From NCBI GenBank assembly GCA_951804945.1, contig OX638153.1:57412001-57476000 (forward strand): a DNA stretch of 64,000 nt. The letters are read 5' to 3'. A program made the translations under genes and the position numbers. Origin of the DNA: Podarcis cretensis. Lineage: Eukaryota. Shown piece by piece: positions 16,970-63,369 of the stretch; position 1 is the stretch's first letter; every line of letters starts with the position of its first letter. Under the pieces are notes generated by a model. That model ran no database searches, had not been told where the DNA came from, and saw nothing but the letters and a program-made list of their open reading frames with translations.

Positions 16970-17336
16970 CGCTGTGGGTTAAAGCCTCAGCGCCTAGGGC
17001 TTGCCGATCGAAAGGTCGGCGGTTCGAATCCCTGCGGCGGGGTGCGCTCCCGCTGCTCGGTCCCAGCGCCTGCCAACCTAGCAGTTCGAAAGCACCTCCG
17101 GGTGCAAGTAGATAAATAGGGACCGCTTACCAGCGGGAAGGTAAACGGCGTTTCCATGTGCAGCTCTGGCTCTGGCTCTGGCTCTGGCCAGAGCAGCGAT
17201 GTCACGCTGGCCACGTGACCCGGAAGTGTCTCCGGACAGCGCTGGCCCCTGGCCTCTTAAGTGAGATGGGCGCACAACCCCAGAGTCTGTCAAGACTGGC
17301 CCGTACGGGCAGGGGTACCTTTACCTTTACCTTTAC
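16970..17336 (+). mobile_element. Sauria SINE, young subfamily, slightly 5'-truncated
   Basis: B box GGTTCGAATCC, body gtgcaagtagataaatagg, (ACCTTT)n tail; CpGs intact. Confidence 0.95.
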
Positions 17337-19335: not shown

Positions 19336-19688
19336 GGACGCGGGTGGCGCTGCGGGTTAAACCACAGAGCCTAGGACTTGCCGATCAGAAGGTCGGCGGT
19401 TCGAATCCCCGCGACGGGGTGAGCTCCCGTTGCTCGGTCCCTGCTCCTGCCAACCTAGCAGTTCAAAAGCACATCAAAGTGCAAGTAGATAAATAGGTAC
19501 CGCTCCGGCGGGAAGGTAAACGGCATTTCTGTGCGCTGCTCTGGTTCACCAGAAGCGGCTTAGTCATGCTGGCCACATGACCCGGAAGCTGTACACCGGC
19601 TCCCTTGGCCAATAAAGCGAGATGAGCGTCGCAACCCAGAGTCGGCCACGACTGGACCTAACGCTCAGGGGTCCCTTCACCTTTACCT
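19336..19688 (+). mobile_element. Sauria SINE, second subfamily
   Basis: ggacgcgggtggcgctg head, B box, ACCTTT tail. Confidence 0.95.
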
Positions 19689-20439
19689 AGCAGCAAGCAT
19701 GAAGGAAGAACGATCCTCCTAAGAACTGGGCTTTCGGTGCATGTGAGGGCTCTTTGCTGAGTAGGATGAAAGGGCAAGCGAACCTGTTTGGTGCAGGAAT
19801 GCAAGAGTGCACCCTGCAGGGAGCTCTCTCACATGCCTGAAATTAGCATTAAAAGAATCCCCCTCCCTAAGCACTGGCTAATGTGAAGGGTGAGCAATCC
19901 TGCTTGCTCTTCGAAACAGCAGCAAGTGAGGCTTCTCTGCTTTTGCTTGCAAAATATAGCTTTATTTCTCTAACCCCAAATCAAGTGAAGGGGAGAGGAG
20001 AAACAAAGCTAGGTTTTGCCATCCTTCTCCCTTGATCCAGGTACCCCAAAGGCTATATTTCCAACACACATTGTCTGACTTCTTCAACTATGCTAGAATC
20101 CACCGACCTGTCCCTCTGTACACAACTTCCTCAGCCTACAATGATGATATGATGACCACGGACATAACAGAAATGTGGTAGGTGGCTGAAGTGCCACAGC
20201 AAAACAGCATTTTTTTGGGTAGGGAGAGACAATGCTGCTGCAGCTTCTATGGAGGAAGAGTGTTTTGTGGGAACAAGCAGTTTGTTGTTGGAATCCTGGT
20301 AATTATTTCACTTATAAAAGTTGCCACGTTAGACCATTCTTGCTGTGACATATTCACACCATCTAAAACCTGAGGAAGTATTTTTTGTCCTTCCGAACGA
20401 TTGTTTAAGCCACTAAATGGAATCACACAAACTAAGGTT

Positions 20440-24700: not shown

Positions 24701-26926
24701 CTTTAATAAAGCAAAGGCACTGGCAAATGCATGAGTGCTGCTACACAAAGAATGAAGCAGCCATTTTATTATTTCAGAAAAGGGACTGTCTTAATGCAAG
24801 TTCTGTCTTAGCTTTCTAATGCTTTGACTATTCCTAACACCATGGACTGACAGATGCTAGAAGAAAACAGGAAGAAATGGAAAATGCCGTTTTAATAGCT
24901 CCAATGCTATTAAAATTTTTGTATGTGGTTTCTATGACAGAAAGCCCATTACACAACACTGGATAGGCTATTTGTTTGACCCAGCATGGCTGTTTTAATG
25001 CTCACCTGAAGCATTCACTCTGCCCCCAGGAAGAGGTTTGCCTTAGCAATATCTTCAGAAAGAGGTGCTGATGCTTTTGGCAGCCATTATTCCAGAGGAG
25101 GTGAAACCGTTGCTGGAAGCCTTTGATCATGTACAGCATTAGTAGGAGTGTTACACATCAGAGACACTGCCACAGTAACTAACATACAAACAGAAGCTTA
25201 GTGCTAACAAATGAGACTTCTTGCTTGCTTAGCATCTTTGTGGCTCAAAGTGATTTTCTCATTGAACAATACCGGAGACAGTGGAAGGTGTTAGGGAATT
25301 AAGCTAGGCTGACACAAGGAATCCTGAAGTTTCAGCTTTGTGTAACTGATTAGCAGGTATAAAAAACTTGTAGAAAAGTTTTCTTCGTTGACTTTAATAT
25401 GTAATGCTAAAAAACCTCAAATTTTGTGGCCAAAAAACCTTAATTTGCTATGAGATTATTATAAAATCTAAATAATATTAAGTTGCACTCCTCCCCCCAA
25501 TACTATTTGGGGGAGCATATAGATTCCTAAACAATCTGGAATTGTGTGTTGCAAGTTGGTGTTAGGGAGCTCAGCAAGTTCTGAGCTTAAAAAGGTATGC
25601 AACTGCAAGAGAGTATTTAAAAAGATATTGAGGAAGGACTATGAGCTGTACTGAGGGCAGAAGGCTCACTTTATGACTAATGGATGCTCTCTGTGTGAAA
25701 AATGGATAGTACATGCATCAAGTACTAGCAATGGTAGCTTTCGGGGGGGGGGGGATCCGAACTTTTGGTGTGGAAGCTAAATCCAAACATGACAGAAGCC
25801 TTATTTGGGTGTTCAATCACCTCACATGTAAGCAAAGTGGGGCCAAGTGTTGAACTCAAACCATGAAGTCAAACAAAATGGGGTCTGTAGTCACTGCAAG
25901 TCAGTTCATCAGTGGCAGCTGCAAGCCCCACTTCCAGCAGGAACTGGCTGCACTCATGAGATCATGTGTAGAACCAATCCCAGAAGTGGATTTGACACCC
26001 ATTTTAAAAGGCACCAAATAAAAGCCTCCTCCCAATGCAGCTGTGTCCTTTTACCTGCCTCACACCTGACATGTGACGTCAAATGTGGGGTAAGTGGACA
26101 TGGATTGGGGGAAATTGCCTCCAGAGGTATCTCGCCGCTGCTGTAATCCATTGGACGTGTGGCTGTCTTTCAACAATGTTCACTGAGGCAGAGTGTGTGC
26201 CTATTAACAGATACTGACTGCCAGGGATTTTATTATTTCAGAGTTAAAACATCTAGACTGGATTTCAGTTTGCTTCCAAGGTTTTGTTTGTTTGTTTTTA
26301 CCAGAGAAGTGAGTAGTTTGCTTCCAAGTTAAATGCAAAATACTGGGTTATGTTTTGTTTTCCTTTTAAAGCCTTAAACAGGCTAAGGTCAGAGTATCTA
26401 AGAGCAGCCCTGCTGGATCAGACAAGGGGATGAGCTGCTTTTTCTTGCTCAATTTAATTCACCTTCGCCTTGGCAAGATTAGTACTTAAAGTGGAGCTAA
26501 TCAATTCTTGGTAAACACACCTTGTTCCTGTAGAAGTATGACCTTAGGGTTTTTGGCAGCTGATTTTCTGTAAGGTAGTAGTAATAGAAGGAAAAGGTGC
26601 TTGGGAAACATGAGTGCCATATTTCCAAAAAAAGGCATACAAAACACTGGTTGACCTCTGTGTCAAGATTCAGAGAGCACAGCTGGATTGCTGACTGCTA
26701 AAAGGTTTAAAGATCTTTCTATAAGGATGTACATTGTATTTAATTTATAGCTGAACATTTACATTTCATCAAGTTCAGAATCAAGAAAAGTCCAAGCTGG
26801 ATCTTCCTTAGTTAAGTCACGTGCTCACCTTTATATCCACATGCTCACCTTAATATCCATCCTTGCTATCACAATTTCCTGGTGGTTTTTACATTAGGAA
26901 ACATAATATAATCCTCTACATGTCTA

Positions 26927-27290
26927 AAGGTAAAGGTAAAGGTACCCCTGCCCGTACGGGCCAGTCTTGACAGACTCTGGGGTTGTGCGCCCATCTCACT
27001 TAAGAGGCCAGGGGCCAGCGCTGTCCGGAGACACTTCCGGGTTACGTGGCCAGCGTGACATCGCTGCTCTGGCGAGCCACAGCCGCACACGGAAACGCCG
27101 TTTACCTTCCCGCTGGTAAGCGGTCCCTATTTATCTACTTGCACCCGGAGGTGCTTTCGAACTGCTAGGTTGGCAGGCGCTGGGACCGAGCAGCGGGAGC
27201 GCACCCCGCCGCAGGGATTCGAACCGCCGACCTTTCGATCGGCAAGTCCTAGGCGCTGAGGCTTTAACCCACAGCGCCACCTGCGTCCCC
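26927..27290 (-). mobile_element. Full-length young Sauria SINE with TSD
   Basis: Near-identical to the 16970 copy. TSD CTACATGTCTA at 26916-26926 and 27298-27308. Confidence 0.96.
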
Positions 27291-34494: not shown

Positions 34495-35302
34495 TAAATA
34501 GTGATGGAGAAAATTTTCATCCCTAAGTTGCAAGCTAAGAAAACAGTTGCAAACCTTATGCACACTGGAACCAAACTGTCTTTACTCTGTAGTTATAAGA
34601 AAAAATGAGATTAAGTATTCATCGTAATGCTAAAAAAAGGGCAGAATTCATGCTTATACTCTGATGCACCAACTGTGACAATATATTTGGCTCTAGTGTT
34701 AAAGCAGTAATAATGGCAGCTGTGTGTTTCTCCAGACAGCAATTTACAAGTAAATTTACAAGTTTTGGGGATTAGGCTCACATTATGTTTTTGTATGAGG
34801 TCCACTGCTGAGAGAACCCTAAACCACAGGAGTTCTAGGGCATAATGGAAATAACTGTATCCACTTAGATTTACGTAGCTGTGCTTCTGTTTACAAAACC
34901 CCCAGATAGAACTGTTCTTACTGTAGATTGTGCTCTAGTGTTAACTTGACCACATGAATTGTGCTTCAGTGCCAACTCCTCCATTGCCAAGCCCTAATCA
35001 CAAGATCAGGTTCATTCATCTTACTGAGACAGGGGCTGCTATTGACCAGAGCACCAAACTATACATAAAACAACAATGACCAGAATGCAAATGCCATGTT
35101 GTCCAAATGCAGTGTTATGCATCCAGAATCGCTGTAGCTGGGTCCACAGAACGTCATAGATCAATAGAATATTCCGATACTGTTGTTTAAAGGTGTCTCT
35201 GCAGCTTCAGAAGCCCGTATCTTTTTCTGGCAAGAGTGTAGCTGCACCACTATCAACAGCATATGTTGTGTATCTGATCACAGGTTACATTATAGTTACA
35301 TA

Positions 35303-35658
35303 CAGTGGTGCCCCGCAAGATGAACGCCTCGCAAGACGGAAAACCCACTAGACGAAAGGGTTTTCCGTTTTGGAGGCGCTTCGCAAAACGAATTTCCCTA
35401 TGGGCTTGCTTCGCAAGACGAAAATGTCTTGTGAGTTCCTGCGGGTGTTTCCCCCTTTTCCCCCCCTTTTCCTAAGCCGCTAAGCTGCTTATCAGCTGAT
35501 CCGCTGATAAGCCACTTAACAGCTGATTGCTAAAAGCCGCTAAACCGCTAATAGCGCTAATCCGCTAAGCTGTCAATGGGCTTGCTTCGCAAGACGAAAA
35601 AACCGCTATACGAAGAGCCTCACGGAACGGATTAATTTCGTCTTGCGAGGCACCACTG
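35303..35658 (+). mobile_element. Tigger/pogo-like MITE, family A copy 1 (orientation arbitrary)
   Basis: TIR CAGTGGTGCC(C/T)CGCAAGA(C/T)GAA, TA TSD. Confidence 0.93.
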
Positions 35659-35722
35659 TATTCCAGCATTCATTCTGGACTGATACAGAATAGGCTGTTA
35701 GCATAACAAGGGATATTATGTA

Positions 35723-36450
35723 CCATATTTTTTGCTCTATAAGATGCACATTTCCCCTCTTAAAAAGTAAGGGGAAATGTGTGTGCGTCTTATGCATCGA
35801 ATGCAGGCGGGAGGCTCTGCTCAGCGCTCCCTTTAAAGAGCTGCACACACACTCTGCGCACTCTTTAAAGGGAGCGCGGCTCTTGGGGGAGCCTCAGCTG
35901 CGCGCAGCCTCTCCCGGGCAGGGGATGAAGGCACGCGGCTAAAGAAGAAGCCAGGACAGCGAGCGGGAATCATCCCACTGGCTGTCTTGGCTTAAGCCAT
36001 AGCCGCGCGCAGCCTCTCCCGGCCAGAGAGGCTGCGCGCAGCTAAAGAAGCCAGGACAGCAAGCGGGATCCCGCTGGCTGTTCTAACTTTTGGCTTAGCC
36101 ACGGCATAAAGTCTCCGCAAGGGAGTGGGGAGCCTTCATCCCGCTGCCCTGCGGAGGCTTTGCGCAGCTATCCCTGGCTTTTGCGGGAGGTGGGAGAAGG
36201 GACAGAGCGTGCGGCTCTTGCGGGAGGAAAGCTAGTAGGCTTGCTTTTGCTGAAGCCAGGAGGGCAAGAGGGATCGGTGCGCACCAATCCCGCTTGCTCT
36301 CCTGGCTTCAGGGATAGCCCTGCAAAGCCTCCTGAGCGAAGATGGAGGAGCGCTCCCTCTAAGCTCAGGATGCTTTGCGTTCTTATTTTCCTCCCCTAAA
36401 AACTAGGTGCGTCCAATCGTCTGGTGCGTCTAATAGAGCGAAAAATACAG
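35723..36450 (+). mobile_element. Tc2/pogo-type non-autonomous element with internal GC-rich palindrome array
   Basis: TIRs CCATATTTTTTGCTCTATAAGATGCAC / GTGCGTCTAATAGAGCGAAAAATACAG, TA TSD; at least 7 internal hairpins. Confidence 0.9.
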
Positions 36451-42900: not shown

Positions 42901-43734
42901 AGATAGCAGAATTGTTGTTGATGTTGGTGCCGCCTCAAACAGGGCACTGTGCATCCCTATTCATGCGCTTTTTTAAAAACCATCAATGCCATGCGTAAGA
43001 TGAAATATGAAGATATATGTCTTTCAGGTCCAAGGGCACAAACTGCTCAGTGGAGCAGGATTTCTAGCAAACAAGGCATATGGAGTTCTACATGGCCAAA
43101 ACATGTTCAACAACAAAAGATCTAATACTGGAGGGCAACCATCTGCCTATCTTGGGAACTGCAAATTAGTAAGAACAATCCCTTGCTCTCCTCCCCAAGG
43201 GGAACTGTTCTCTCACTCTTGAACAGAAGTGTTTCTGACTCCTGTAGAAGGAAGAGATTCTGACAATCCTTGCAATGTCCTGGTCTCTGTCAAGATGATT
43301 AAGAAGACTCTGTTAGAACTCTATAAAGAGCAACTGGTTCTGAAATGGATGGACACAATGTTCCAAGTAATGGATTCCCACACTAGAAGGATGTAATTAA
43401 GCTGATACCCATACGAATGGCTGGCCAGGATGCAGTGCTTACAGATAAAGTTACTAAGGCTCTGTCTCTCATGGGAAGTCCGAGTTGGCTACGCTTTTTC
43501 ACAGACTTTTAACAAGATTCAACAATGTAATCCTCTCCAAGGTATACTGAATAGCAAATGAAGATGAGATCTTGCCCTCGGAAAGACAGTGTTTTTTAAA
43601 ATAATTCACCCCTTTGAGTCATCTACAGATAGCAGACACTGACAGTGCTAAGAATCACCTTTGAGAACAAATTCTGCTCCTCGTTACTATCACAAAAGAG
43701 AGTACGAAGGAAAAACATCAAAAAAAGAAATGTA

Positions 43735-44087
43735 CAGTGGTGCCTCGCAAGACGAAAAGAATCCGTTCCGCGATTCTCTTCGTCTAGCGGTTTTTTCGTC
43801 TTGCGAAGCAAGCCCATTGACGAATTAGCGGATTAGCGCTATTAGCGGCTTAGCGGCTTTTAGCAGCTTTAAGCGGCTTATCAGCTTAGCGGATAAGCAG
43901 ATAAGCGGCTTAGCGGCTTAGAAAAAGGGGGGGAAGGAAAAAAAAGTCGGAAAAACTCGCAAGACATTTCGTCTTGCAAAGCAAGCCCATAGGGAAATTC
44001 GTTTTGCGAAGCGCCTCCAAAACGGAAAACCCTTTCGTCTAGCGGGTTTTTCCTCTTGCGAGGCATTCGTCTTGTGGGGCACCACTG
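43735..44087 (-). mobile_element. Tigger/pogo-like MITE, family A copy 2 (inverted relative to copy 1)
   Basis: Same TIRs and interior in reverse complement; TA TSD. Confidence 0.93.
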
Positions 44088-44856
44088 TATAATAGTTATA
44101 CAAACAAATTTCAGAGTACAATGCTCTTCTTTATTGCTACTAATGCACTGGTCTTAATCTCATGTGTGAAGTGCAAAAGGCCTTCAAATGAAGGGAAGGA
44201 TGAACATATGCTTCCAAGAAGGCTCTACTATTAACTGAATGGCAAGCAGGAGAAACATAAAATACCCCAAGTATCAGTGACAGGCCTCCAAATTTACTCA
44301 CTCGCTTGCAGTCCATAAGTAGTCATGCTTATGTTCTTTTTTTGCAATTAAGTTTATTAGTTTATCAATATTCCCCCAATAATAGCCAAATTATAGCAAT
44401 ATCAATTAATTTCATAACAATATCAGTTAATTGCCATGCTTATGTTCTGCCCACCCATTGATAAGATCACTTAGGCCTGTTTTGCAGAGCCCCGTTTATT
44501 TAATCCATTAGTATCTATGTTCCTATCTGGCCATCATCCACTTTGCTTATATCATCTACTTTGTCAGTCTGGTAACACCATGGATGACTTAACTATCAGA
44601 GGTCCTCACTGTGTAATTCTTGGTCATCTGTCTATAAATTCTGAACCTGCTCTAAAACACAAGCCTACCTTTATGTTGCATTCTCCCTTTTCAATTTCTG
44701 TCTTTTAGATTGTGAGCCATACAGAAGTATTGCATAAAGAACTATCACCAGGTTAGAAACATTAAGCCAGTCTTTCCTTCCATTATTTTCCCAAGGCTAA
44801 GCCAAATTAGACACATCTTCCACCACCTCAGGACCCAAACACAAGACTAAACTTAC

Positions 44857-45890: not shown

Positions 45891-46044
45891 CTTTCCCAGA
45901 CAATCGTCGGGGATGTGTGCCAATGCAGATACTTCTACTGTCTTCGTCATCCTCTGGCGGCCGGCTAAGATCATCCCAGGCACACTTAGCACTGACACCA
46001 CTCAGGTTCGAACCGTCTGTCTCAATCCCTTTATCAACTCTGTC
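45891..46044 (-). CDS. SUFU: SUFU coding exon 7 (154 nt): DRVDKGIETDGSNLSGVSAKCAWDDLSRPPEDDEDSRSICIGTHPRRLSGK
   Basis: Contained in ORF 45835..46104; cAG acceptor, GTAAGA donor. Confidence 0.98.
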
Positions 46045-46529
46045 CTGCTTAAAAAAGATCCAAAACAGCCAAGTCTTTTGAAGCCAAAATCCCACCTGTG
46101 CCACTACAGGAACTACAACCTCATGGAGTATGTTTTCCTAGATTGTGGTTCACCAACACAGAGCCTGTGGATGCCCGCAAGTCTTCAAACTCCTGCCTTG
46201 TCATCCCACCCCCCACCCCGGCTCCTTGAAATTAGGCTTCAAAGCAGCCTTCTGGTGAAAACAAAGGAAATAAGATTCCACTACCCTTGAAAAAATGCAA
46301 CTTAACAGAGTTAAAGGGAAAACATTCAATTCTAAACTGTATAAAAATAGATTTTTAATATTCCATAAGATAAAATGAACGTGTAAATGAATATAAATAT
46401 AAGTACTTCTTTTTCACTTACAAGCCACTGCCAATTAAAAACAAGGGCTTCTAAAAACAAAACAGCCAGACACATTTCAACACTGAGTCTTTTTCTGTGG
46501 CTCAGTCATTATTATCTAAGACAAAGGTA

Positions 46530-47374
46530 CCGTATTTTTCGCCCTATAGGACGCACTTTTTCCCCTCCAAAAATGAAGGGGAAATGTGTGTGCGTCTTAT
46601 GGGGCGAATGCAGGCTTTCGCTGAAGCCTGGAGAGCGAGAGGCGTCGGTGCGCACCGACACCTCTCGCTCTCCAGGCTCCAGGAAGCTATCCGCAAGCCT
46701 TGCGTGCCCGGGGGAACTCCCCCCGGGCGCGCAAGGCTTGCGGGCGGCAGCCTGCAGTGCGGAGCACGGGACGCCCTTTGGAGGACGCCCCGTGCTTCGC
46801 GCAGGTGTCCACAAGCCTTGCGCGCCCGGGGGAACTCCCCCCGGCGCGCAGGGCTTGCGGGCGGCAGCCGGCAGCGCGGAGCACGGGGCGCCCTCCGGAG
46901 GACGCCCGTGCTTCGCGCAGGTGTCTGTAGCCTGCCGCCCGGCGGGAGCAGAGTGACCCGCGCGCCAGACAGACATCTGCAGCGTGGGGAGCCCTGCAGG
47001 AGTTCCCCGCAGGGCTCCCCACACTGCGGATAGCAGCCTGCCGCCCGGCGGGTGGGGCGCCCTGAAGCAGAGCGCCCCGCGCCGGACAGACATCCGCAGC
47101 ATGGGGAGCCTTGCAGGAGTTCCCCGCAGGGCTCCCCACGCTGCGGATAGCAGCCTGCCGCTCGGTGCGTGTGGCGCCCTGAAGCAGAGCACCCCGCGCG
47201 CCGGACAGACATCGGCCAGCCCCACAAGCTCGGGGGACAGCGGGGAGGTGCAGCGCCACCATCCCACTGTTCCCCGACCTGGTTGGGGGGGGGGGAAATA
47301 AAGGAAAAATTTTTTTCCTTTATTTCCCCCCCCCCCAAAAAAAGTAGGTGCGTCCTATGGGACGAAAAATACGG
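46530..47374 (+). mobile_element. Tc2/pogo-type non-autonomous element with internal GC-rich palindrome array
   Basis: TIRs CCGTATTTTTCGCCCTATAGGACGCAC / GTGCGTCCTATGGGACGAAAAATACGG, TA TSD. Subterminal aaggggaaatgtgtgtgcgtcttat shared with the 35723 element. Confidence 0.92.
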
Positions 47375-47671
47375 TAAGTAGAAATCGTTATAGTCAAAAT
47401 CCCACACAGGCAAAACATTATTTCAGAAACAAAAATATAATTCAATTACTCACCCTTATGCCTCATTAAAAAAACTTTTTAAACTGGAATGATAACCTAA
47501 GTGTCCATACATTTCTACAAATCAATGAATTCCATTGAAGACATATAAACACATTTCAAATATCAATGCAAAGCCATTCTGGAATATTAAAATATGGAAT
47601 ATTAAAACTCTATATTTATACAACTTATAATGAAAAGCCTTCTAGTGTGGCCTTTAGAAGACTTTTTCCAA

Positions 47672-47969: not shown

Positions 47970-49381
47970 TTTAAAGTAGCTTTCTACCATAACATGTCCC
48001 TCTGTCCCCCAAGGTAATTTATGGGGTGGAGAAAACTGTGCGTGTGTGATCTCCTAGCTGAGGAGCCACAGTTAACTCTTACCTCCCCAGCTGAACTCTC
48101 CAGGAATATCACAGGCTGAAACACTTCCGCCCCCCCCCAAAAAAAACTAATTGCAGGGGGGAGAAGGGATTGTGTATGCCTTTGTATGGTTGCCATGTGA
48201 GCACTTGGTGGTGTGTGTTTGGAACCCAAGGTAGAGTCTCTAAGTTTGCAAATGGAAAATTGGAGATCCCCATTCTACATTTTATTGGCAGTCAGCATTT
48301 GAGAAATGAAGGGCTTTTATACTGTCCCACATTGTGCTAAAGGAAAGGAAATGTGAGCCACAGCTTTTAATTCATCAAAACTAAATTTTGCAAAAAGTTG
48401 TTACATCAAGAATAGGTTTCAATGAATCCTCAATACATCCTCCCGACACGCGTCACTTGTGATTATCAAATTTCCCCCTTTGAACAGTGCCTGACTGTCG
48501 AAGAATCAACTTCATAGTGATTCTACAAGGTTAAATCTGAATGTCTGAATGAAAAGTTCTGAACATAGTATTCCTGCATTACATGCAAACCAGAAATTCA
48601 AAATGTAGACAGAGCAACTTAGGAAAATTACTTGTGTCAGCTTCTAAAATTCACCACCAGATGTTGCTGTTAAGCTAAATATAGCAGTGAAGGGAGCCTT
48701 ACAAGGAGAAGCAACTGCAGCAGTTTAATGTAAAAACCAAGGAGAAAATATTTATTCAAATTTTCTTTTCACATGCAAACATATACACTCAACTCTAATG
48801 GAACTACATTTAAGAAACTTATTTCTCTGCTGCACCAATCAAATATGCTTAGCTCTTTAGCATGGTGAAAGAAAATTTCACTCTGGCCTACCAGACTCAC
48901 ACATGCAGTGTTTCGCCGTTTTTAATGCCAAATTTGGAAAGGTAAGCTTCTCCTACTACAAGAACAAAATTCTGTATTAAATGTATTTATGAACAGTTTG
49001 ACATTGTGCTTTATTAAGAGTTGTACAGAGGTAATTGCTTTTCAGCTTTTTGTACTGTATGGTTGCTGTGTTGTTCAATATGATCTGAAGAGAACCAGAG
49101 TATGCTGTGTTGGTTATTATGTCCTTCTGGTGAAGGTTAGTATATAAAATTCTTCATAATTACATGTGCTAAATTTCTGCACAACTGTTAAAGGCACAGG
49201 AACTCTACTCTGTCATTGTTGTACCTTGTAAACTTGCGGAGAAAACTGCATGTAGCAAGTGACTTCCCCATTCATTCCCACCCTCTCCAAAGCACATGTG
49301 CACTAGAAAACAGACAAGGCAGGGAAAATAGAGGTTCAGTAGGGTAGGAGACTGAGCTGCTTGTGGCCCAGTTGCCCAATA

Positions 49382-49709
49382 CAGTGGTGCCCCGAAGACG
49401 AACACCTCGCAAGACGGAAAACCCGCTAGACGAAAGGGTTTTCCATTTTGGAGGCGCTTCGCAAAACGAATTTCCCTATGGGCTTGCTTCGCAAGATGAA
49501 AATGTCTTGCAAGTTCCTGCGGGGTTTTTTTCCTTTTTTCCCCCTTTTCCTAAGCCCTAAGCCGCTTATCAGCTGATCCGCTAAAAGCCGCTAAACCGCT
49601 AATAGCGATAATCCGCTAAGCTGTCAATGTGCTTGCTTCACAAGACGAAAAAACCGCTATACGAAGAGCTTCACGGAACGGATTAATTTCGTCTTGCGAG
49701 GCACCACTG
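49382..49709 (+). mobile_element. Tigger/pogo-like MITE, family A copy 3
   Basis: TIR and interior as copy 1; TA TSD. Confidence 0.93.
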
Positions 49710-49960
49710 TATTAAGCTGTTGAAATGAGTTCAGGGACACTCAGTGAAGCCAATCACACTTTGATCAGGCAATCAGTGATCTACAACCATTGCCTCTGGG
49801 AAACGGTATTCCAAAGATACCCAGGTTGAGTCCCAGCAGCTTCTGACAGTAATCAACAAGTCTATCCTGAGCACATTCAGTTATCAGAAGGTAGCTGTTC
49901 CTCATGACTAAGAAAGCAATGCTCTGCTGTCATCTAGGACCAGATTGAGTAGTTACATAC

Positions 49961-51701: not shown

Positions 51702-52064
51702 GGGACACGGGTGGCGCTGTGGGTTAAACCACAGAGCCTAGGATTTGCCGATCAGAAGGTCAGCGTTTCGAATCCCCGCGACAGGGTGAGCTCCCGTTGC
51801 TCGGTCCCTGCTCCTGCCAACCTAGCAGTTCGAAAGCACCCCCGGGTGCAAGTAGATAAATAGGTACCGCTCTGGCGGGAAGCACAACGGCATTTCCGTG
51901 CGCTGCTCTGGTTCGCCAGAAGTGGTTTAGTCATGCTGGCCACATGACCCACAAGCTGTCTGTGGACAAACGCCGGCTCCCTTGGCCTATAGAGCGAGAT
52001 GAGTGCGCAACCCCAGAGTCGGTTACGACTGGACCTAATAGTGAGGGGTCCCTTTACCTTTTAC
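51702..52064 (+). mobile_element. Full-length Sauria SINE with 15-bp TSD
   Basis: TSD CTAGATT(A/T)ACTATGA at 51687-51701 and 52065-52079. Confidence 0.95.
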
Positions 52065-52081
52065 CTAGATTTACTATGAAG

Positions 52082-59000: not shown

Positions 59001-61247
59001 CCATCACCTACAACATAAAGGAGAAGGGCAAAAGTCTGATGCTCATACTTGCTCATTCTCAAACTCCAAGCCATTTGGTTATTACACTTCAACTGGGCAT
59101 TATTTTTTGAAAGAATGTCAAATCCTGCCAACAGATGGTAGCAAACAAAAAACATCTTCTAGAATTAACAGAAGCATGAAGCTGTTTTAGTGGAAACTGT
59201 GAATTTCAACACTTAAAGTAGTTAAGCAATGAGGGTAAGTATAGTTTTGAAAAGCTTATGCACATGCCTATTTGCCAGTGGCTATCCATGTTTTGGGCTT
59301 CTTCCACTCAAAACTTTATATTATCACCCATTGGCTAAAATGCACATACAATAATCCTGACAAGCAAAGCTTTACAGAGAAGTCCCCTATCTAACACAAT
59401 ACCTACACTTTGTAAATCTGAGAGCAGACACATTTCTCCATTTCTTAAAAAATGCCAGCTATGATTGGGTTCTTTCCCACACATTTAATTCCTACCCAAT
59501 ATATCTTTCTGATGGTTACAGCCTTATATTTTGCCTTAGTAATGAATAAATAAGTAGCTCCCTAAAACTTGAGAACTGTCCAAAATCAGCACAAGACCTT
59601 TCTATTTAGTTGGTATGAACTGCCAGGGTTTTTATTTTTAAAGAAATAAATACATAGAAACTTGCACAGTTGTTTTTCACCAAGTATACATAGACATAAT
59701 TATAATAAATTCATATGTAGATTTTAAAAATATTAATAGCACAAATTATATTATTCATAAAAAGAGCAAGCAACTGAAGAAATACTAATGTTTTGTCACT
59801 TCCTTTCTTTGCTTTTCTTACAGAGGAAGTTGGGGGTAGCCTAGAGTTATTGTTTGCAATCCATGCATCTTTGAAGAAATTACTGTAAATATAATTAGAT
59901 GTTCCAAACACAGAGATATTACGGCACGGTCCTATGAAGTTCATGTGTACACTTCTGTGTTTAGAGTTTGAACGTGAAATAAAAGTTTTGCAAAATCTCG
60001 AAGAAGCTGTCTTTATTTTGTCTTTGTTGAATGACTGGAAAGTGGGACAGCTTTAATACAGCTGACCCTCTTAATTGTCTAGGCCTGGCCTACTATTACA
60101 ATTATCTTGGCTCAAATCCATCTGAATTGGGGTGCAAAACGAACATATATATTTGTAATAAATAATTAAATGGAAAATCCCCACACTCAATGACTTGCAA
60201 GCAAACTGGCTATATTTTTTAAAATGTTTGGAAACTAAAAATAAACATTTTTTCCACGAAGCAAGCCAAATCTAAAACAGCCTTTGATGTTAACTTCCCC
60301 TGCTTCAGTCAGATGCTCAGCATACACACACCATTGACACACTGCAAAGTTCTGTCGCAGAGCCCCACATAGTGATTTTAGTTCTCCAAGGGTCATTCTT
60401 TATGTAACTAAAATAGCATCCATGCACCAGCATGCCTGTGAGAAATGACACATTTACAGAAGTACAGTTTTGTTTTTTGTTTTGTTTTTCCTCATGAAGG
60501 AAATCTCCCCATTCCCCCAATCTTAATGGTGCAAAGAGGAGTGGGCATGCTTATAAACTGAAGGGATAAAAATTGTGATTTTTTTTTTAATGAATAAATA
60601 CAGATTATCAGTAGTTGCTTTGTACTTTGCATTATTGAAATAAAAGAGGAGACAGCTATTTTTCAATCTGCTGGCAGAACTTTAAAAGATGCTTAAGCTT
60701 TGTAGTTTCATGAAGTCCAGGCCTTCTATAATCCTTTTAAATATAGTCCTGATAATTCACTAAAAAAAAGATAAAAATTGGCCACTCAAGCCCAACATTC
60801 TGGGGAAGCAGAAGGAAGAGGAGAGTAACCGTGAAGTATTCATGGCTAGATGTTGCCAACATTCTAACAGCAATCAACAGCAGAGGCTCAGCAGGGGCTC
60901 TTCTGTACACACAAGGCCCTATCATCTTACTTTCTCCAAAACAGCTTTCTCCCTAGATCATGAAAATCAATAAGGTTTTCGGCTATCAGGTTTTTTTTTA
61001 AAAAAATACATTATTATAGCAGTGTGCAATATACGTTCATTATAACCATTTTTTTTAAAAGACAAAGAGAGACACAAGCAGAATAAAAAGGCTGGAATGG
61101 ATCCGCAGCTTCTGCTTGCGTTCCTTTCTGGAAGCAATGTTGGGGTGACTGGCTCCAGCAGGAATAGTATGGGAAGAGGAGGGTGTGACAGACACCCTTC
61201 ACTTAAGCTCAGTAATGTGACCACTACCTGTAGGTGTGTTTTAGATA

Positions 61248-61568
61248 CAGTGGTGCCTCGCAAGACGAAAAGAATCCATTCCGCGATTCTCTTCGTCTAG
61301 TGGTTTTTTCGTCTTGCGAAGCAAGCCAATTGACGGTTTAGCGGTTTAGCGCTATTAGCGGCTTTTAGCGGCTTATCAGCTTAGCGGATAAGCGGCTTAG
61401 AAAAAGGGGGGGGGAAGGGGAAAAAAGTCAGAAAAACTCGCAAGACATTTCGTCTTGCGAAGCAAGCCCATAGGGAAATTCGTTTTGCGAAGCGCCTCCA
61501 AAACAGAAAACCCTTTCGTCTAGCGGGTTTTTCGTCTTGCGAGGCATTCGTCTTGCGGGGCACCACTG
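61248..61568 (-). mobile_element. Tigger/pogo-like MITE, family A copy 4 (inverted relative to copies 1 and 3)
   Basis: TIR and interior as copy 2; TA TSD. Confidence 0.93.
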
Positions 61569-63369
61569 TAAATCTCTGCCTGTATTTCCTCAGAAGTTTT
61601 TCAATTAACTGTTCGTGATAGTGATTATATTTACCAGCAGCAATATATTATAATTAGGTGAAGGAGAACTCACAAACACTTAACCGTCATTCAGAACATC
61701 TAAATAAGGGTAAGGCACTTTTAGAACAAAATTTGAACTTTGTTTACACTCCAAGATGTTATACTGTAGATTAATGGTTACTTTTGACAGGTACAAATCT
61801 GTTTCAAACAGAGCTTTTAAGTTTGTTTGTTTTTAAATGATTTAAACCTGTCACTAGACATAAATTCTTTCTAGGATAACTATTGCCTTACACTACCCCA
61901 TAAAACACTTCCAGCCCTTCTAGAGTCTTGACCTTCCCTCCAGGCAGATAGAACCTTGTCTGTCCACATACAATCTCTATCTCTAACTGTCAGTCAATTC
62001 ATTATCTGTCCTCACTGACATCAACCCTTTCTAATTCCACTCAGATAGTCAGAGACCCCTTCCGCCCACCCAGACAGAAAGTCCCTATCTCCAATCCCAG
62101 GTCCCTATCAAACCCACAGACAATCTCCACCTGCATTCTATCAGACATTCCCTATCTGGATCTTAAATTCCATTCTCCCTCTCCCCCATTGGCTGATTGA
62201 CTTGCCAGCTCCCACTGGCTGCCCTCAGCTTGATCTGACTTGCCTCTGGTCAGATCAACATGGGTCTTTTTCTCTGCGTGAGAAATGTCCTGTTTTGGCT
62301 TCTTGGCCGTTCTTTCATGGTTGCATTGTTAGCTTTCTGCCGCTTTATCTTTTCTTTGCTATTTTCTTTTACCTATTATTCTGTTTCTTCCTTTGTTGAA
62401 ATAAACAGAGAAAAATTCCTGGCTACACACCCCAAAGAAACGTGCTGCACACGCCTATTCATATAACATGAGTAGGTTTAATGAGTAGGCCCTTTTGGAA
62501 ATGTGTTAAAAGAAATAACAAGCATACTGAGTTATGATCTCCTAAGAGATGCTGAGATAATAATATTTGCATACCTTAAGGCCTGAGAAATGACAGTTCA
62601 TTTATGGACAGCAGCAAAAATTATTTGCCCAAAATGGATAAGCTCTACAGACACTGTGATACTGATTATCTGGGATATGGCATATATGGTGAAATTAAAC
62701 AACTTCATGAGACAGATAGACTGATTAGCTTATTGTTTCAACAAAAGAAAAGCTCAATTTTTCCAAAAAGCACAAGATCAAATTAACCCACAGTTTTTAT
62801 TCCAGTAATTTTATGCGTAGCAAAAATACATTTCATATTTGCACCATAATATTTGCTTGTAATTTTTAGCATTTTAATCAGCCTGTAATAATATTTGTTT
62901 TATGACATTTGTATATATTAAATCAATCACAGTTATTTAAAGATTTAAGCTGATCTGTATATTTATATCTGATATTCTAAAGTTCTCTATGGACCAATCC
63001 ATATAAAAAGAATGAAATGAAGAGAGATCAAAGCCAAGATTATGAAGATAATTGGACATAGACTACTGAAGTCTGCAACAAAGGAATTAAAAATAATCAT
63101 ACTTGGATGCCGCATTTGTTATCCACAAATCATGAAACAGTCTCAAAAGGCTCAAATATATAAATGGCAGTATCTCACTCTATTCATTTTACTTCCAGGA
63201 AATAAATATTTGAATTTGTTTGATCTGTCATGCAAAAATTCACAACCATATTAGTTGTAAGTAAACGGAATAAAAGCTGAGTGCCTCATAAAAGGCATAC
63301 TACAAAAACAAAAGAAAAAACTCAAATATCACCAACCTTTTGACATAAAACAAGCCACATAAATAGTAC

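Follow-up and report, generated by a model that had tools for sequence, protein, structure and literature searches.

The window, a stretch of 64,000 nucleotides, carries at 46530-47374 an element of 845 bp with TA on either side and with inverted ends of 27-29 nt that are 93% complementary. The element is a young non-autonomous copy of the lizard cut-and-paste transposon Passer (pogo, DD35D) and lies within a SUFU intron, at a distance of 486 nt from the exon at 45891-46044. This agrees with the distance of about 490 nt to an exon acceptor given in the original prediction, in which the exon is numbered 7, presumably after the human gene. The features of the locus, in window positions, are as follows:

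35723-36450, plus strand: copy 1, an older sister-lineage Passer MITE with only the ends and an H1-like hairpin in common
45891-46044, minus strand: host SUFU exon by the insertion (context), with a Pfam SUFU_C match
46528-46529, no strand: left TA target-site duplication; the empty site elsewhere skips 847 bases, that is, 845 plus TA
46530-46556, plus strand: left TIR, CCGTA-type, 27 bp, matching the ends of the autonomous elements L082, L090 and L091
46538-46608, no strand: left-end hairpin (TIR motif plus inverted inner copy), common to the whole family
46621-46682, no strand: hairpin H1, found in the autonomous L082 and L090 and kin to hairpins of copy 1 and of a 259-bp sister MITE
46691-46808, plus strand: monomer A1 (H2 and H3)
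46809-46924, plus strand: monomer A2 (H2 and H3), identical to A1 at 108/118 positions
46925-46976, plus strand: A/B junction with an H5 remnant (46936-46968) that has an internal deletion
46977-47093, plus strand: monomer B1 (H4 and H5), identical to the monomer of autonomous L090 at 95/120 positions
47094-47212, plus strand: monomer B2 (H4 and H5), identical to B1 at 108/119 positions
47230-47277, no strand: H6, a weak hairpin
47283-47338, no strand: H7 palindrome with perfect 27-bp arms and AATAAA on both strands
47348-47374, minus strand: right TIR; the 17-bp inner repeat of most copies is missing here
47375-47376, no strand: right TA target-site duplication

Folding recovers the H2/H3 pair twice (46691-46918) and the H4/H5 pair twice (46977-47203), within two 117-bp tandem arrays at 46690-46925 and 46947-47213. 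The whole element, folded as DNA, has a z-score of -23.7, with none of 20 shuffles equally good, and a strict hairpin scan finds nine hairpins in the element versus zero or one in each of 19 window tiles of the same length. About 11 serial hairpins had been predicted, and 11 do fold where they were placed, along with the H5 remnant and the left-end hairpin; the proposed G-run/C-run palindrome H7 was likewise confirmed, its arms being perfect over 27 bp. The right arm of H7 is the ordinary right-end tract of the family, and the left arm is the mirror of that tract. The GC content of the element is 0.68, and its observed/expected CpG ratio is 0.85 versus 0.27 for the window. Judged from the frames alone, the stop-free frames in the element are only GC-driven and contain no transposase coding.

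The element was first described as a non-autonomous transposon of Tc2/pogo type, which is right: it has a TA duplication, a CCGTA TIR and ends common to Passer parents. A genome of 1.5 Gb in 51 contigs was surveyed, and a DDE_1 search, used to reach autonomous elements, led to elements of 2.0-3.3 kb with the same ends as the MITE, so that the suggested search for an autonomous partner yielded one with a 425-aa transposase. The full ORF of 425-428 aa is kept in 5 of 14 autonomous-type elements, and the two transposases tested contain BrkDBD, HTH_Tnp_Tc5 and DDE_1 domains with DD35D spacing. Passer is characterized by CCGTA ends, a 26-28-bp TIR, a TA target-site duplication and a 425-aa transposase with Brk, HTH and DD35D (PMC9976928, PMC7386202), and the parents found here have the same ends, TIR, duplication and transposase. 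Among the copies surveyed, a TA duplication flanks 91 of 95 and the TIR is shorter than 30 bp and starts with CCGTA, and the partner encodes a transposase within 400-500 aa with Brk and HTH motifs and DD35D. The assignment to Passer is thus one by features, the tree that was built covering within-genome ORFs only and the published Podarcis row being compared by eye.

In this tree, L082, L090 and L091 form a clade with a support of 1.0, and the terminal motif of the MITE is found in these three at all four repeat positions where present. The MITE matches the autonomous copies only outside the ORF. It resembles other MITEs in having no transposase coding, ends as in an autonomous element and at least 121 dispersed sites, but its copies are not of small, uniform length (387-1181 bp, median 674). 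The Tigger-type DDE_1 loci L051-L080, L088, L092, L095, L096 and L098 were rejected as the partner as their ends do not match. A separate cluster of about ten DDE_1 open frames (533-753 aa) without Passer ends occupies G000:C2:117.9-119.2 Mb and may represent domesticated genes of Tigger origin in a tandem family.

Passer of Podarcis muralis (Pomu), Lacerta (Laag) and Zootoca (Zovi) is included in the part of Table S1 seen in PMC9976928, and the left end and repetitive 5' region of the partial Pomu row, compared by eye, read like those of L083 and L085. The closest proteins to the L085 transposase are 92% identical, from Podarcis lilfordi, and named POGK. Together with the lacertid rows of Table S1, these records show that the autonomous Passer family is already known from lacertids. 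More distant relatives of the L085 transposase, also recorded as POGK, occur in a caecilian and a frog (83%), a bichir (81%) and the tick Nuttalliella namaqua (79%), a distribution that suggests horizontal transfer. Each element has four copies of the terminal motif, which change together from one sublineage to another (L085/L083, L087/L089 and L082/L090), giving three versions that are accompanied by only a few changes at the transposase N-terminus. In L082, L087, L089 and L090, the presumed intron ahead of the transposase ATG contains a small nested inverted-repeat element, which we take to be hAT-like. In L083, the 5' region (positions ~90-950) has grown to about 1 kb of tandem repeats that are direct and form no hairpins, and the available part of the published Podarcis row is similar.

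Copy 1 had been regarded as the same transposon; its ends and H1-like hairpin are indeed in common, but it belongs to a sister lineage and is without monomers. Two further repeats are present in the window in four copies each. One is a TA-flanked MITE of about 350 bp with internal repeats of 8, 16 and 17 bp (35300-35662, 43733-44090, 49379-49713 and 61245-61570), presumably Tigger-like, and the other is a repeat of about 365 bp, 78-95% alike among copies (16970-17335, 19336-19690, 26925-27289 and 51703-52068), which is probably a SINE. Elsewhere in the genome, L158 (G000:C11:62836863-62837681) and L181-L183 (C1:6882012-6883932) have three family motifs in a row at a spacing of 350-1000 bp and may be complete or partial elements arrayed in tandem.

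Monomers A and B give a global alignment score of 49 in direct and 25 in inverted orientation, compared with a maximum of 21 after shuffling, the first hairpin alone giving a slightly better fit when inverted. They are thus diverged versions of one two-hairpin monomer of about 118 bp, arranged head to tail, in place of the two different units originally described. H4 had been read as an inverted relative of H2, and the loop of H2 is indeed the reverse of that of H4, but the monomers themselves align directly. Monomers related to H4/H5 lie upstream of the ORF in the autonomous L090, L091 and L094, and C-type monomers occupy this position in L090 and L091 and are absent from the other autonomous 5' regions; no A-type monomer was found in the 16 autonomous 5' regions examined. 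The arrays form a series, namely C(D) in autonomous elements, H1-C(n)-B(m) in an older MITE group (left motif with 196 exact matches, 30 fetched), H1-A(n)-B(m) in the present group, and a third group with monomer E, carried by L208 and L218. Since one monomer occurs in several versions, and also in the parent, the array is not captured cargo of two kinds, and the suggestion of unstable cargo gives way to an array common to the 5' region of one autonomous sublineage.

Monomers A, B, C and E are 61-80% alike in direct orientation, whereas left ends are 92-94% and ORFs 91-97% alike in comparison with L082. The divergence of the array is several times that of the ends and ORF, and the array changes far faster than point mutation would allow. 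Other sublineages, with ORFs 91-94% identical to that of L082, have different GC-rich 5' regions, and 5' regions are largely non-homologous between sublineages whose ORFs are 91-97% identical. In the autonomous L082 and L090, the G/C inverted repeat of H7 is imperfect, and in the MITEs H7 is a near-perfect palindrome.

Arrays also differ strongly among MITE copies. The genome contains at least 121 exact matches to a 25-mer from the end of H1, and 110 loci were fetched, which after removal of 6 duplicates and 9 unparsed loci gave 95 elements; the first 20 of the 110 were picked by left-end likeness, which biases that part of the sample. Jumping alignment to a family consensus identified 63 hairpin orders among the 95 copies, 52 of them singletons, and even copy pairs with nearly identical ends have the same order in only 5% of cases. 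The module diversity that a copy survey was expected to reveal is therefore there. Copies contain 0-7 A units and 0-3 B units, and A never follows B (0/95). The jumps are in monomer register in 137 of 275 cases, and microhomology at out-of-register junctions is small (mean 1.5 vs 1.0); 13 hairpins are C/B chimeras. Sister units within a locus differ by 0.111, compared with 0.122 for units of different loci, and therefore most tandem units predate insertion, although some duplications happened in place, as 7 of 84 locus-private variants are common to sister units. The 259-bp sister MITE with one H1-like hairpin, whose left motif has 2400 exact matches and is shared by elements with other interiors, has kept its length (12 of 14 copies at 255-267 bp) despite higher divergence, which indicates that length change needs direct repeats.

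Growth by duplication and inversion, as originally proposed, holds for duplication of modules; inversion of whole modules is rare, and what inversion there is mostly affects a loop. Whole-module inversion was accordingly rejected as the mode of growth, since the monomers align directly and, H7 apart, segments in reverse orientation occur only in a few copies and at one junction common to eight copies. Some of these segments may be alignment alternatives within palindromes.

The stems remain paired between monomer versions. The first hairpin of A compared with that of B has 17 pairs unchanged, six changed on both arms (all transversions) and one pair indel, and no change is one-sided. The remaining comparisons between versions are similar, with at most two wobble changes; here monomer types were set by arm motifs, only predicted pairs were compared, and C was derived from 21 hairpins and E from one copy. 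The loop in A is AACT in 88 cases, the reverse AGTT in 21 and a single-step intermediate in 5, and both orientations occur in C too. Because the AGTT loops cluster mainly in the first unit of one sublineage, independent loop inversions may number only two or three.

Within inserted copies the pattern is the opposite. Among 93 copies (two messy parses being dropped from the 95), 1428 stem cells show one-sided changes and 43 compensated changes. Of the latter, 41 are at CpG, where two transitions compensate automatically, leaving 2 compensated cells outside CpG in 9419 cells. The G-run and C-run lengths of H7 are also uncorrelated (rho 0.02; 44 of 95 parsed). Ongoing arm-to-arm copying in inserted copies is not supported by these counts and by the H7 arm lengths, and the inserted copies, this one included, simply decay with one-sided stem damage. 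CpGs had been described as largely intact; the composition is CpG-island-like, but transitions across the family reach 9.1% at CpG versus 1.5% at other G/C positions, about six times faster, and the state of the CpGs reflects youth. On this substitution spectrum an unmethylated CpG island was rejected, and resting copies appear to behave as methylated, neutral DNA.

At SUFU, one 4.5-kb contig in run X7 (organism D) joins the two flanks and skips 847 bases, whereas runs X1 and X5 (organisms A and B) have junction contigs at both element ends and none spanning the array. The insertion is thus common to organisms A and B and absent in organism D. On the SUFU sense strand, H7 (47279-47324, minus strand) provides an AATAAA and a polypyrimidine tract ending in CAG, and no strong splice donor was found downstream of it within the element. 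Co-option of this copy for SUFU, as a CpG island, small-RNA source, cryptic exon or polyA site, would draw on these H7 signals, the CpG-island-like composition, stems of pre-miRNA size and the presence of the insertion in two organisms, yet it is highly improbable. The copy decays in an ordinary way (CpG transitions 7.7% and other changes 1.8%, with family medians of 8.9% and 2.2%) and the insertion is lacking in organism D. One raw RNA run, of which 12% was read and which was matched by species label, is possibly from another species and is not small RNA, showed no RNA specific to the locus: 97% of 1500 reads continue into other sequence, the unique flanks have zero depth, and start or end pile-ups are absent. 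The RNA reads at the array come from other copies. In Rfam, all 95 matches were weak and below the gathering score. As nothing at SUFU points to a function, this copy probably has none for the host, and as a host feature the element is ordinary.

Several known systems resemble the array in part. Hairpins are not mentioned in the main text of PMC9976928, and hairpin-array derivatives and the L082-type sublineage are not among the Table S1 Passer rows compared. DTC84-type MITEs (PMC3879986) likewise use their flanks as a cassette for ordered core repeats with a palindrome per repeat and position-fixed variants, and nearly every element is unique, as here; the ordered variable core repeats with one palindrome each place the present array among tandem-repeat MITEs. 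DTC84, by the same account, has an AA target-site duplication, subterminal inverted repeats, a linked microsatellite and a 12-nt palindrome, and the pearl-type features of this set are not shared: the Passer array belongs to a pogo element with TA duplications and true TIRs, has no microsatellite and can be traced to a parent; its monomers consist entirely of 17-24-bp stems, both arms of which have been rewritten from one subfamily to another. In Anolis, recombination and capture have given non-autonomous families that resemble each other at the ends and differ widely inside; the part of PMC3014272 covered describes Tc1/mariner-like families without an autonomous partner and does not mention hairpins or palindromes. 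The mouse and rat L1 5' UTR is similar in having GC-rich tandem monomers upstream of the ORF that are replaced while the ORF is kept, but L1 is a retrotransposon with a demonstrated promoter function, and its monomers are not described as hairpins (PMC5381506); any such function in Passer is putative. Template switching at hairpins (PMC8794818) predicts loop inversion, multibase compensation and stem perfection, although in RNA genes under selection and not in a repeat array of a DNA transposon. PMC10058329 concerns a different element. The original prediction of an undescribed architecture stands in that searches of the open literature gave no description of a Passer derivative whose monomers consist of hairpins only and have both arms rewritten, although Repbase or Dfam may hold a consensus, and falls in that MITEs with a palindrome per unit are already described for DTC84. 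Tandem-repeat MITEs with palindromes being known, the array is of interest for how hairpins evolve.

The reading that we consider somewhat probable is that an inserted, decaying Passer MITE carries an array from the autonomous 5' region, whose stems were likely rewritten by fold-back or template switching, with slippage as a likely contributor. Cut-and-paste elements go through gap repair of excision sites (PMC3014272), and excision of a source element would lead to gap repair that exposes single strands. Fold-back or template-switch copying during this repair would likely create the stems and rewrite both of their arms in source elements, so that rewriting would be confined to the transposing lineage; the direct repeats would likely slip or recombine and thereby change the monomer number. 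As the array diverged by both-arm changes, multibase template switches fit better than stepwise substitution, and template switching yields perfect stems and multibase compensations (PMC8794818). Against it, arm-to-arm repair is not visible in inserted copies, there is little microhomology at out-of-register junctions and no intermediate was caught. The monomer versions could also have been captured from elsewhere instead of evolving in place.

The main rival is selection on structure, as paired stems under selection would show the same pattern between types. Hairpins in source elements would then serve as a transposase promoter or transposition aid, with sequence turning over and pairing kept. 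We hold this possible though somewhat unlikely. It would account for stems compensated between types and not in resting copies, for the position of the array, which follows the left end and precedes a branch-point/acceptor immediately upstream of the ATG, for the GC-rich first 350 bp (0.53-0.67) in 16 of 16 autonomous copies examined, and for 5' regions that are largely non-homologous despite similar ORFs. Rodent L1 monomer arrays contain CpG-island promoters (PMC5381506) that are repeatedly replaced, and by analogy with those of mouse, turnover could serve escape from sequence-specific silencing. However, long hairpins are few or absent at this position in most autonomous sublineages, insertion occurred over the whole range of 0-7 A and 0-3 B units, the commonest sister MITE has a single hairpin in place of an array, and MITEs need no promoter. 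An unlikely account is that the array is neutral, unstable GC-rich filler shaped by replication slippage and recombination after insertion, the monomer types being old paralogues sorted by deletion. The in-place duplications and chimeric hairpins fit this, as do position-specific variants like those of DTC84 (PMC3879986) and the recombination reported between Anolis DNA transposons (PMC3014272), but both-arm transversions and paired indels between types are left unexplained, and most tandem units predate insertion. Less probable is that the left-end region of this Passer lineage is a structure-encoded cis element whose tandem two-hairpin monomers would act as promoter or transposition aid; fold-back repair would rewrite both arms in one step, so that the element could change sequence, evade sequence-specific silencing by the host and keep its shape, a DNA-transposon counterpart of L1 promoter turnover.

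The Passer family provides a dense natural record of both-arm rewriting in a propagating lineage and decay in resting copies, so that the setting in which compensatory change arises can be told apart from that in which it does not. Passer is an active tool in cell assays, so that template switching and selection can be directly tested against each other. If the structure is selected, it would point to a cis element inside a transposon that is now used as a vector with TIRs alone.
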